Origin: a virus
Taxonomy: Duplodnaviria; Heunggongvirae; Uroviricota; Caudoviricetes
Virus record (IMG/VR): IMGVR_UViG_2565956633_000005
Coordinates: 1 to 42,184 of that record
Length of the DNA: 42,184 nt
Direction: 5' to 3' (one strand)
The position numbers were made by a program, and so were the translations under genes. Each line of letters opens with the position of its first letter. The first letter of the stretch is position 1. This document shows positions 5,608 through 5,950 of this stretch, one piece after another. Under the pieces are notes generated by a model, which searched no databases, was not told the origin of the DNA, and saw only the letters and a list, made by a program, of their open reading frames with translations.

Positions 5608-5670
5608 CACGCCTCCGGAAATAAAAAAACCGCCATGTCGGCGGTTTACATATGCACTGAAATGACTTAT

Positions 5671-5919
5671 CTATTTATCGCTGGATCCATTACGGTCAAG
5701 AGATTCGGCGATCCTGTAAAGATGCTCAGTCGCCTTGAATGAGTTCATTAGGAACTCATAAAGCACACGTAAAAGCAATGCACTTACCACCGATATCGTA
5801 ATCGCCGTGAAATTCATTGAGACAACAGAAAAAACGAGGAAAATGCCAATTACCAGGTAAACAAGCGCAAAAACCTTTGGAGTATAAATGGCTTTTGCTC
5901 CAAAAACTTTTTCATTCAT
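5671..5919 (-). CDS. small membrane protein, two predicted TM helices (moron inside tail operon)
   Basis: 82-aa ORF with AGGAAG RBS; hydrophobic stretches VFALVYLVIGIFLVFSVV and FTAITISVVSALLLRVLYEFL; AT-rich; followed by hairpin plus U-run at about 5622-5646. Confidence 0.5.
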   Translation of the reverse strand: MNEKVFGAKAIYTPKVFALVYLVIGIFLVFSVVSMNFTAITISVVSALLLRVLYEFLMNSFKATEHLYRIAESLDRNGSSDK

Positions 5920-5950
5920 AACTTCTTCCTTAACGAAATGACGACAGTGA

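Follow-up and report, generated by a model that had tools for sequence, protein, structure and literature searches.

An exchangeable gene for a predicted two-helix membrane protein between the tape measure and N genes of a lambdoid prophage

Genes and signals at the locus

The window, as the whole stretch of DNA that was analysed is called here, comprises the 42,184 nucleotides of IMG/VR virus record IMGVR_UViG_2565956633_000005. The E. coli prophage it contains is lambdoid with a Mu-type contractile tail, and its lambdoid gene set includes CI, CII, O, P, Q (a Q-like antiterminator), RecET, and an integrase. The original prediction had spoken of Mu-like tail modules, and the likeness to Mu proved to be limited to the tail module, the phage itself being lambdoid. 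Within that module a small gene separates the tape measure gene from N, and the features of the locus are as follows.

4204-5607, minus strand: gene N, located downstream of the ORF and encoding a Mu N-like "DNA circularization"/baseplate hub protein.
5619-5647, minus strand: intrinsic-terminator-like hairpin (8 bp stem, 5-nt loop) and T-run; a backbone element at the right edge of the variable segment.
5648-6105, minus strand: minimal variable (mosaic) segment as compared to empty-slot relatives, comprising the cargo gene and ~155 bp from the 3' end of the tape measure gene.
5671-5919, minus strand: 82-aa ORF, a putative divergent DUF4282-like two-helix inner-membrane protein (phrog_12129), assigned from profiles, hydropathy, AlphaFold2, and dN/dS.
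5884-5886, minus strand: codon 12 of the ORF; the window has TAT (Tyr) here, most relatives have TAG (amber), and outgroups have TGG (Trp).
5927-5931, minus strand: Shine-Dalgarno AAGGA, 7 nt 5' of the ORF's ATG, read from the sequence.
5951-7810, minus strand: tape measure gene, whose product carries a lytic transglycosylase domain (phrog_2276, E 3e-156); upstream neighbour.
5993-6021, minus strand: sole sigma-70-like match 5' of the ORF, ATGATA-17-TATAAT (10/12), within the 3' coding end of the tape measure gene.

The 82-aa ORF and its ATG start were confirmed in the window, and the elements originally read from the letters (the ORF with its own ribosome-binding site, two hydrophobic helices, AT-richness, and a hairpin with a T-run before N) are all present. 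At 0.398, the GC content of the ORF is below that of the window as a whole (0.519) and of gene N (0.536). That of the tape measure gene is lowish too (0.485), and the AT-rich patch continues into its 3' end.

The stem of the hairpin pairs positions 5647-5640 with 5634-5627 (AAACCGCC GACAT GGCGGTTT), and the T-run reaches 5619, ending 2 nt 5' of the GGAGG of N (5616-5612), whose ATG is at 5607. Of all sense-strand sites in the window's first 20 kb, a region that takes in most of the late operon, this one most resembles a terminator. Single-sequence folding of the hairpin region and its flanks performed no better than shuffles (z -0.83), and an Rfam scan of the hairpin returned sub-threshold matches only. 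All 13 distinct hairpin variants fold, with dG values of -10.7 to -20.6 kcal/mol, and two stem positions are paired in 12 of 12 scored variants by A-T, G-C, C-G, and T-A types, such that the support for the hairpin is comparative rather than thermodynamic. The hairpin is found equally in slots that lack the small gene and in the cultured phages phiNP and BZS1. It had initially been assigned to the cargo, together with its U-run, and is instead a covarying element of the backbone.

Inspection of the sequence 5' of the ORF gave no convincing private promoter. The count of sigma-70-like matches is not above shuffle expectation, and the single match at 6021-5993 is not conserved 5' of homologues. 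Because no terminator lies between the tape measure gene and the ORF, the latter would be transcribed with the Q-antiterminated late operon, and non-antiterminated transcripts would be expected to stop at the hairpin, ahead of N.

A predicted two-helix protein resembling DUF4282

The hydrophobic stretch of the protein spans approximately residues 16-57, with a 19-residue Kyte-Doolittle maximum of 2.76, and AlphaFold2 models a helical hairpin of residues 2-33 and 37-79 with a turn at 34-36 (mean pLDDT 81.7). Both the hydropathy and the model support the two transmembrane helices proposed earlier, and the protein is predicted to form a two-TM helical hairpin with a 3-residue turn. Both termini are predicted to be cytoplasmic, a topology inferred from the positive charge of the N-terminal tail and a neutral or acidic loop. 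The membrane cores are variable, and conservation is confined to the juxtamembrane segments, with the motif FGxKxIWTPKIF preceding helix 1 and LRVLYEFLMxSFKxTEHLYRIAE at and after the end of helix 2. The family alignment contains 28 invariant columns, and the C-terminal 20-residue motif is invariant.

The protein matches phrog_12129, a PHROG with no assigned function, over essentially the full length of the profile (E 6.2e-11; protein residues 6-77, profile positions 2-77 of 79). Its match to Pfam DUF4282 (PF14110) scores 22.1 bits (E 2e-4), below the gathering cut-off of 27 bits, and DUF4282 matches were also obtained for 10 of 10 close relatives and 21 of 22 wider-family members (best E 9.7e-12), including a member resembling that of Edwardsiella phage GF-2 whose 31.5 bits exceed the cut-off. 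These matches cover both helices and share the pattern TPK...R-x3-E...RIAE, and the ORF encodes what DUF4282 comprises, a small integral membrane protein with two predicted hydrophobic helices. The profile comparisons place the protein in what appears to be an Enterobacterales branch, small and divergent, of DUF4282, an uncharacterised family of which no mention was found in the literature searched. A sequence search of the PDB with the family profile gave no match, and the AlphaFold2 model, compared to viral structures with Foldseek, found nothing beyond generic helical hairpins, with no hit at E ≤0.001. PADLOC, run against PADLOC-DB, yielded no match at E values up to 0.1 for the ORF or for two proteins that can take its place in related prophages.

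Among sequenced phages, megablast of the region found nothing, and the sole homologue at the protein level was ORF-19 of phage GF-2, which is 33% identical, 80 aa long, and of the same architecture. Its gene too stands directly behind one for a tape-measure-like lytic tail protein, with a hairpin and T-run after it. GF-2 differs in phage genus and tail type, the start of ORF-19 abuts the tape measure stop, and an Arc/Ant regulatory insert lies downstream in place of a Mu N-like gene.

Slot occupancy and the codon 12 alleles

In closely related prophages with N genes 99% identical to that of the window, the tape measure stop is followed directly by the same hairpin and the ORF is missing. Because these empty-slot relatives join the tape measure stop to the hairpin, the gene is a true insertion between two tail genes. 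Empty slots were found in the E. coli prophages of AW1.7, ES8, and OW1E2, and alternative cargo in ABWA45 (a 165-aa gene), GN05064 (a 244-aa gene), and L011, where a 188-aa gene accompanies a homologue of the ORF. The three alternative cargo proteins each start with a signal-peptide-like sequence. Among E. coli prophages that share 96-99% identity in N, the slot is therefore empty, filled, or differently filled. The gene is also missing from the cultured phages phiNP and BZS1, in which 33-36 bp separate the tape measure gene from N, and phiNP releases viable temperate particles (PMC6456863). Homologues that are 51-59% identical, from Citrobacter and metagenome contigs, occupy the identical slot position. 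The right edge of the exchanged segment is fixed, with homology across all slot states restarting at 5645-5647, and its left breakpoint falls at 6162, 6683, or 6889 in other relatives.

The gene is thus accessory, horizontally exchanged cargo. The proposal of independently acquired cargo, for which a comparison of related tail modules had been suggested as a check, is upheld by the presence, absence, and replacement of the gene among near-identical E. coli prophages and by its absence from phiNP and BZS1. A core tail gene is ruled out by the empty slots in viable relatives. Strict co-inheritance with one type of tape measure C-terminus was likewise rejected, as the same type occurs with different cargo and the gene occurs with other types. 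As to the HK97/HK022 definition of a moron, the ORF is an extra gene absent from close relatives and deviates in base composition (0.398 as compared to 0.519-0.536), and it has no terminator of its own, since the cargo sits 5' of a pre-existing backbone terminator. Overall, the locus looks like ordinary phage moron biology.

In most carriers, codon 12 is an amber stop. It is present in 21 of the 22 complete E. coli genomes carrying the gene, in approximately 26 of 31 IMG/VR loci, and in 27 of 32 closely related alleles when IMG/VR loci, E. coli loci, and the window are taken together. The amber allele is the central and commonest haplotype, and its clade has acquired 4-5 further changes, all of which are non-synonymous or stop-loss. 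The window's intact TAT allele is rare and probably a revertant, the most parsimonious history of the codon being TGG to TAG to TAT. A second, independent repair was found on several contigs from Enterobacter, in which the amber allele has one T more, and this puts an alternative start in frame with the membrane helices. Two independent repairs suggest pressure to restore the protein. Among diverged intact homologues, dN/dS is 0.09-0.23 with dS saturated; the gene is real and under long-term purifying selection.

Given the dominance of amber among carriers and a clade in which every change is non-synonymous, E. coli lysogens can dispense with whatever benefit the gene may bring, and the gene could be read as hitch-hiking cargo that is now functionless in E. 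coli and being lost, with the intact copy of the window a neutral variant. The frequency of empty slots and the failure of PGAP to call the ORF in amber-allele genomes agree with such decay, as do the haplotype counts. Purifying selection across genera and the invariant C-terminal motif do not, nor does either of the repairs, one most parsimoniously a reversion in the window and one in Enterobacter, and we consider the gene unlikely to be a mere decaying passenger.

Genomic contexts and candidate functions

In IMG/VR, 38 of 80 wider-family loci have an ORF of 568-1102 aa ending ≤61 bp upstream of the start of the small gene, and in many relatives the gap to the tape measure stop is -1 to 61 bp, the two genes abutting or overlapping. 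The identity of the upstream ORF was checked for 11 of these 38 loci, and all 11, from several PHROG families, are tape measure or tape-measure-like lytic tail proteins. A universal association with the tape measure gene was rejected, as the arrangement holds for about half of the IMG/VR loci and only 5 of 45 species-representative genome loci. In another phage type, a family member lies between baseplate hub and wedge genes. Some members are found in non-phage chromosomal contexts, and the accA-ldcC interval contains DUF4282 members in Escherichia ruysiae, E. whittamii, and cryptic clades.

The lack of a conserved private promoter and the tight packing behind tape measure genes look like late co-expression, not like a unit expressed in the lysogen. 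One explanation for this would be a late tail or ejection accessory that is made with the tail proteins in lytic growth and acts with the tape measure protein, for example by tempering tape measure insertion or transglycosylase activity at the producer's membrane or by aiding tail-tip assembly. The abutting or overlapping junctions with tape measure genes of unrelated families, the member set among baseplate genes, the lack of a terminator between the ORF and the tape measure gene, and the exchange of the ORF together with the tape measure 3' part are all consistent with such a role. Nevertheless, phiNP and BZS1 are viable without the gene, empty-slot prophages with near-identical tail genes also do without it, and the C-terminal type of the tape measure protein does not map one-to-one onto presence of the gene. 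The non-phage chromosomal members also count against this role, and the GF-2 gene is annotated only as hypothetical, in contrast to two nearby genes annotated as virion structural proteins. A late accessory is given a low probability.

The size of the protein and its predicted N-in/C-in two-helix topology resemble those of class II holins and many small membrane regulators, and the protein might instead modulate lysis timing as a holin- or antiholin-like factor, act as a small membrane toxin, or change envelope physiology as a lysogenic-conversion factor. The DUF4282 members at the ordinary accA-ldcC loci suggest a general membrane role, and every alternative cargo of the slot is envelope-directed. 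That the ORF is the phage's own holin was rejected, since the prophage has a separate lysis cassette (Rz spanin 20638-21123, endolysin 21102-21605, holin 21577-21855) and the ORF matches no holin family in PHROGs or Pfam. The distance of the ORF from this cassette at 20.6-21.9 kb and a conserved motif that is not holin-like also speak against a part in lysis, and membrane roles of this kind appear improbable as a group.

The reading that we favour, and hold tentatively at somewhat less than an even chance, is that this optional cargo gene is transcribed with the late operon and that its product resides in the inner membrane and blocks genome entry of related phages. In such a scheme the protein would insert in the inner membrane and hinder the entry of incoming related genomes, a superinfection exclusion comparable to that by HK97 gp15 or T4 Imm. 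Superinfection exclusion like that of HK97 gp15 is plausible by analogy. HK97 gp15 is a 62-aa inner-membrane moron that blocks the injection of genomes; its gene adjoins that of the tape measure protein and has a terminator behind it (PMC3594210). Both loci consist of an AT-rich insertion in the tail operon that adjoins the tape measure gene and encodes a small (for the window, predicted) inner-membrane protein, with a terminator hairpin just 5' of the RBS of the next tail gene, and each protein has relatives encoded on chromosomes outside phages, YebO in the case of gp15 and the accA-ldcC members in that of the window protein. The two show no sequence relationship (hhalign probability 0.7%). 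HK97 gp15 has a single hydrophobic segment as compared to the two predicted helices of the window protein, its gene precedes the tape measure gene instead of following it, and the terminator in the window belongs to the backbone, unlike in the HK97 gp15 case. For gp15, a promoter of its own, expression from the prophage, and the injection block have been demonstrated. T4 Imm is close in size (83 aa as compared to 82 aa) and also has two hydrophobic helices, and its record annotation describes a membrane change that leaves the DNA of superinfecting phage in the periplasm. It has no homology to the window protein (hhalign probability 0.1%) and is encoded by a virulent phage among DNA-metabolism genes, in contrast to the tail-module location of the window gene. 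The literature searched contained no paper joining a gene downstream of the tape measure gene, superinfection exclusion, and a transmembrane protein.

The repeated position of the family behind tape measure genes favours the entry-blocking reading, as it links the family to the injection machinery. Several observations count against exclusion. The protein has no homology to any protein of demonstrated exclusion activity, as judged by hhalign against HK97 gp15 and T4 Imm, and PADLOC gave no hit. Its predicted periplasmic loop has only ~3 residues and is variable, and its conserved surfaces are predicted to be cytoplasmic, which offers no obvious fit to blocking a tail tip that arrives from the periplasm. 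The family members at non-phage chromosomal sites also argue against the reading as a whole, and an exclusion role in E. coli is weakened because 21 of 22 carrier genomes have the amber at position 12. A broader proposal is that DUF4282-like two-helix proteins behind tape measure genes constitute an unrecognised, widespread exclusion family in Enterobacterales phages, acting via the conserved cytoplasmic-face motif on the incoming tape measure channel, with the tape measure|N junction as a dedicated exchange site for envelope-acting anti-phage cargo. We regard this broader proposal as doubtful.

For prophage annotation, the slot is useful as a fixed exchange point with a covarying terminator and alternating envelope-directed genes, and it exposes an annotation gap, as the stop codon leaves the gene unannotated in most RefSeq genomes. 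The amber allele can serve as a natural control for loss of function, and phiNP, a phage able to infect E. coli K-12, is at hand as a challenge phage. Were the protein found to block genome entry, this would be the first function for DUF4282, and a new inner-membrane exclusion family, unrelated to HK97 gp15 and T4 Imm, would join a short list.

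Setting of the small gene in the late operon

The ORF is an optional, horizontally exchanged gene for a DUF4282-like two-helix membrane protein, located upstream of a backbone terminator, and we hold this architectural and evolutionary description of the ORF and its slot with high confidence. It starts 31 nt past the tape measure stop codon, among the following features:

5951-7810, minus strand: tape measure protein with a transglycosylase domain (phrog_2276, E 3e-156)
5671-5919, minus strand: the ORF, 82 residues, MNEKVFGAKAIYTPKVFALVYLVIGIFLVFSVVSMNFTAITISVVSALLLRVLYEFLMNSFKATEHLYRIAESLDRNGSSDK
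7 nt 5' of the ATG of the ORF, minus strand: its Shine-Dalgarno sequence AAGGA, read from the sequence
5884-5886, minus strand: codon 12 of the ORF, TAT (Tyr) in the window
5647-5627, minus strand (5619-5647 with its T-run): hairpin AAACCGCC-GACAT-GGCGGTTT, its T-run ending 2 nt before the GGAGG of N
4204-5607, minus strand: Mu N-like 'DNA circularization' / baseplate hub protein (N), downstream of the ORF

All sequence features noted in the original prediction were confirmed in the window: an 82-residue reading frame with its own ribosome-binding site, an AT-rich composition, two hydrophobic helices, and a hairpin with a U-run between the stop codon and the ribosome-binding site of N. The GC content of the ORF is 0.398 as compared to 0.519 for the window, 0.485 for the tape measure gene and 0.536 for N, and values of 0.38-0.42 across 5625-6124 contrast with 0.52-0.56 on the N side. 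Residues 16-57 of the protein are hydrophobic, and AlphaFold2, supplied with a nine-sequence alignment, predicts a helical hairpin (helices 2-33 and 37-79, three-residue turn, mean pLDDT 81.7).

Mu-type sheath, tube, chaperone and baseplate genes surround the tape measure gene and N. The remainder of the window is lambdoid: its genes include those for a CI-like repressor and CII, for O- and P-like replication proteins, for a Q-like antiterminator, for RecE/RecT and for an integrase. A terminase gene is present as well, as is a cassette of holin, endolysin and Rz. The Mu-like character therefore applies to the tail module but not to the phage as a whole; a Mu-like transposable phage was rejected because the non-tail genes are lambdoid, and the element is a lambdoid prophage that carries a contractile tail of the Mu type. 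An HNH endonuclease gene (22707-23132, minus strand) separates the Q-like antiterminator from the lysis cassette.

The late genes are all on the minus strand downstream of Q, which places the ORF within the late operon, presumably Q-antiterminated as in established lambdoid phages. The sole sigma-70-like match upstream of the ORF, ATGATA-17-TATAAT at 6021-5993 (minus strand), falls in the coding end of the tape measure gene, where its TATAAT is encoded by Thr-Tyr-Asn codons. Such matches do not exceed shuffled expectation (3 versus 3.2 in 2.5 kb; 10 versus 15.6 in 20 kb), and TATAAT conservation was absent upstream of the ORF homologues, leaving no convincing private promoter. In many relatives, the small gene directly adjoins the tape measure stop codon or overlaps with it. 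Judged from the sequence itself, the only mode of expression implied would be co-transcription with the late operon.

The hairpin before N and the polymorphic slot

The hairpin ranks first among sense-strand terminator-like sites in the initial 20 kb of the window, a stretch that takes in most of the late operon. A GC-rich hairpin with a T-run precedes N in every relative examined from Escherichia, Citrobacter and Serratia phages (compared loci L018:3968-4000; L019:3967-4000; L002, L003, L004, L005, L008, L009, L011, L012, L016 and L049). It occurs in prophages whose slot (from the tape measure stop codon to the hairpin) is empty, in phages phiNP and BZS1, and 3' of each alternative cargo, always 5-12 nt upstream of the Shine-Dalgarno sequence of N. 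All 13 distinct variants fold, with stems of 7-14 bp and dG of -10.7 to -20.6 kcal/mol. For covariation scoring, 12 of the 13 were put in register; five core stem pairs are paired in all 12, as are two pairs below the core that vary among A-T, G-C, C-G, T-A and G-T. Pairing maintained despite changing bases is compensatory change, indicating that the structure is under selection. Since the hairpin is present in all slot states, it belongs to the backbone and not to the cargo; its occurrence in empty slots, phiNP and BZS1, together with the compensatory changes, rules it out as the ORF's own terminator. It resembles a conserved intrinsic terminator placed midway through the tail operon, one that Q-antiterminated late transcription would read through and at which non-antiterminated transcription would halt before the baseplate genes. 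HK97 gp15 has the same layout, a small ORF followed by a putative terminator and then the next tail gene.

The 2-kb region around the ORF was found in 33 of 5,426 complete E. coli genomes. Among prophages whose N genes are 96-99% identical to that of the window, the slot has four states:

Small gene present: several prophages, NCTC9040 among them
Empty, the tape measure stop codon being followed by the same hairpin after ~30 nt: AW1.7, ES8, OW1E2
Unrelated 165-aa gene: ABWA45
Unrelated 244-aa gene: GN05064

A metagenomic relative (L011) carries a 188-aa gene and a small-gene homologue in its slot. The alternative cargo genes are:

L003:2361-2858, minus strand: 165 aa
L005:4371-5105, minus strand: 244 aa
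L011:5375-5941, plus strand: 188 aa

The three encoded proteins are mutually unrelated, and all three have a signal-peptide-like N-terminus, which makes every known slot occupant envelope-directed. None of these proteins matched Pfam or PADLOC, and their PHROG matches were solely to families of unknown function. In the nearest cultured phages, Citrobacter phage phiNP (N 68% identical) and Serratia phage BZS1 (N 50%), the gap between the tape measure gene and N is merely 33-36 bp. Viable temperate myovirus particles of phiNP are released and can lysogenize E. coli K-12 (PMC6456863). Comparison of related tail modules thus agrees with accessory cargo, the slot being empty or otherwise filled in close relatives, and a conserved core tail component is rejected by the absence of the gene from the near-identical prophages AW1.7, ES8 and OW1E2 and from phiNP and BZS1.

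In pairwise comparisons, homology among all slot states restarts where the 5' arm of the hairpin begins, at its first bases (5645-5647), and the left breakpoint varies within the tape measure gene (6106, 6162, 6683 or 6889). A variable left and a constant right breakpoint indicate that the cargo is exchanged as a unit together with the 3' part of the tape measure, and the terminator with the start of N acts as its fixed right anchor. The C-terminal third of the tape measure (5951-6889, minus strand) is mosaic among otherwise near-identical prophages; its several sequence types do not track cargo one to one, and one tape measure group differs by ~69 bp in length.

As moron-like cargo, then, the ORF qualifies in being an optional, exchanged membrane gene, but it lacks its own terminator and shows no convincing private promoter.

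Protein family and codon 12 alleles

A word-indexed search of 5.8 billion proteins returned only 16 clusters, exclusively from Escherichia, Enterobacter and Citrobacter, and a profile search of 1.84 billion representatives gave 24 matches at E <= 0.001. Homologues 51-59% identical all occupy the same slot. The small protein is the most divergent in its neighborhood (51-57% identical, versus 71-79% for N, 81-89% for P and 89-99% for the tube protein), with divergence concentrated in the membrane cores. The motifs FGxKxIWTPKIF before helix 1 and LRVLYEFLMxSFKxTEHLYRIAE at and beyond the end of helix 2 are near-invariant, and T13, P14, R51, E55, L67 and I70 are invariant in the wider family. Saturated dS and dN/dS values of 0.09-0.23 among small-gene homologues indicate a real protein under purifying selection. 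Positive charge in the N-tail, with a loop that is neutral or acidic, predicts by the positive-inside rule that both ends are cytoplasmic, a topology in which the conserved surfaces would face the cytoplasm.

The ORF protein matches phrog_12129 (function unknown) at E 6e-11 and scores 22.1 bits against Pfam DUF4282, below the cut-off of 27. As DUF4282 is matched by 10/10 close and 21/22 wider relatives (best E 9.7e-12), with a GF-2-like member scoring over the cut-off, the protein is filed as divergent DUF4282-like. No paper in the library searched mentioned DUF4282, a search of solved structures found no relatives of the ORF protein, and a fold search with its model yielded only generic hairpins.

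IMG/VR contains 104 wider-family relatives, of which 80 loci were kept for neighborhood analysis. At 38 of the 80, an ORF of 568-1102 aa ends at or <=61 bp upstream of the small-gene start; 11 of these 38, picked from different types and compared with PHROGs, were all tape measure or tape-measure-like lytic tail proteins, spanning families 3336, 1538/1107 and 2013/2276. At locus L130, the tape measure gene ends 340 bp upstream. About 36 loci represent one phage type in which the small gene sits between baseplate hub and wedge genes, four genes past the tape measure gene, and at two loci it lies just upstream of the central tail fiber gene. ORF-19 of Edwardsiella phage GF-2, 33% identical to the ORF protein, comes straight after a tape-measure-like lytic tail protein, and a hairpin and T-run of its own follow it. 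In GF-2 (L017:4417-6325), the tail gene cluster is interrupted directly after this homologue and hairpin by an Arc-like repressor and Ant anti-repressor module, at the slot-equivalent position.

In species-representative genomes, the wider family occurs in 45 species, nearly all Enterobacterales; only 5/45 of these loci adjoin a tape measure gene and several are plainly non-phage, so the tail-tip link, strong in phages, does not extend to the family as a whole. A late helping role for the small protein, tied to the tape measure protein, seems improbable to us. In Escherichia ruysiae, E. whittamii and cryptic Escherichia clades, the interval from accA to ldcC holds a chromosomal, non-phage member (L169:2992-3246; L143, L146, L151, L154). 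This site appears empty in E. coli proper, as flanks alone match in 5,425/5,426 complete genomes. Such chromosomal members parallel HK97 gp15, which has chromosomal YebO relatives (PMC3594210).

The Enterobacter-type allele and most diverged homologues have TGG (Trp) at codon 12, and most close relatives, most IMG/VR copies included, have TAG (amber); the loci compared at this codon include L007, L001 and L022-L046. The 32 closely related alleles, from IMG/VR and E. coli loci and the window, comprise these haplotypes:

16/32 loci: amber, central
11/32 loci: amber-derived (F27Y, F27C, T64S, stop-loss), all non-synonymous
4/32 loci: TAT, intact
1/32 loci: TGG

Allele-specific 55-mers, with each 28-mer seed spanning the codon 12 site, identified the amber allele in 21 of 22 carrier complete E. 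coli genomes, in all of which the ORF is unannotated in RefSeq; NCTC9040 alone carries TAT. Two places in NCTC9040 (NZ_LR134247.1) match the region, and the small gene is intact (TAT) in one copy. A frameshifted form of the protein (P0007), on record from a contig of equal length, may represent either another prophage copy or an artefact of assembly.

The prevalence of amber alleles shows the small gene to be dispensable in E. coli lysogens. TGG to TAT requires two steps, for which TAG is the observed one-step intermediate, and the intact TAT allele of the window is, by parsimony, probably an amber revertant. A second repair, found in several Enterobacter contigs (L047:5001-5247; protein P0006), adds one T to the T5 run of the amber allele, fusing an alternative +1-frame ATG (MKKFLEQKPFRLQRF...) to the helix-encoding frame. 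The two helices and the C-terminal motif are thereby restored, now preceded by a new and strongly basic N-terminus. The existence of two unlike repairs hints that selection favors regaining the small protein, and we consider it unlikely that the ORF is a decaying passenger. The same +1 frame in the window holds a 21-codon ORF (5850-5915, minus strand) beginning at the second ATG of ATGAATG (MKKFLEQKPFILQRFLRLFTW), probably meaningless in the window itself.

Possible function of the small protein

The small protein would be made at least alongside the late tail genes and would reside in the inner membrane, the conserved motifs turned toward the cytoplasm. The analogy of HK97 gp15 (PMC3594210) and T4 Imm suggests that it may hinder genome entry by related phages. 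This mechanism, which we advance tentatively, is favored by the recurrent placement behind tape measure genes, by the finding that each alternative cargo is envelope-directed, and by the precedent of gp15 and Imm. It is weakened by the lack of homology to gp15 or Imm (sought, with none found), a minimal and unconserved periplasmic loop, the lack of a lysogen promoter, and widespread nonsense alleles. Another role in the membrane is an unlikely alternative.

Small membrane-protein cargo in a phage tail operon is of a known kind, the family of the ORF being uncharacterised, and a phage biologist would find nothing surprising in the sequence. The natural intact and amber alleles, with phiNP as the test phage, would make for a clean and cheap experiment on whether the small protein hinders genome entry.
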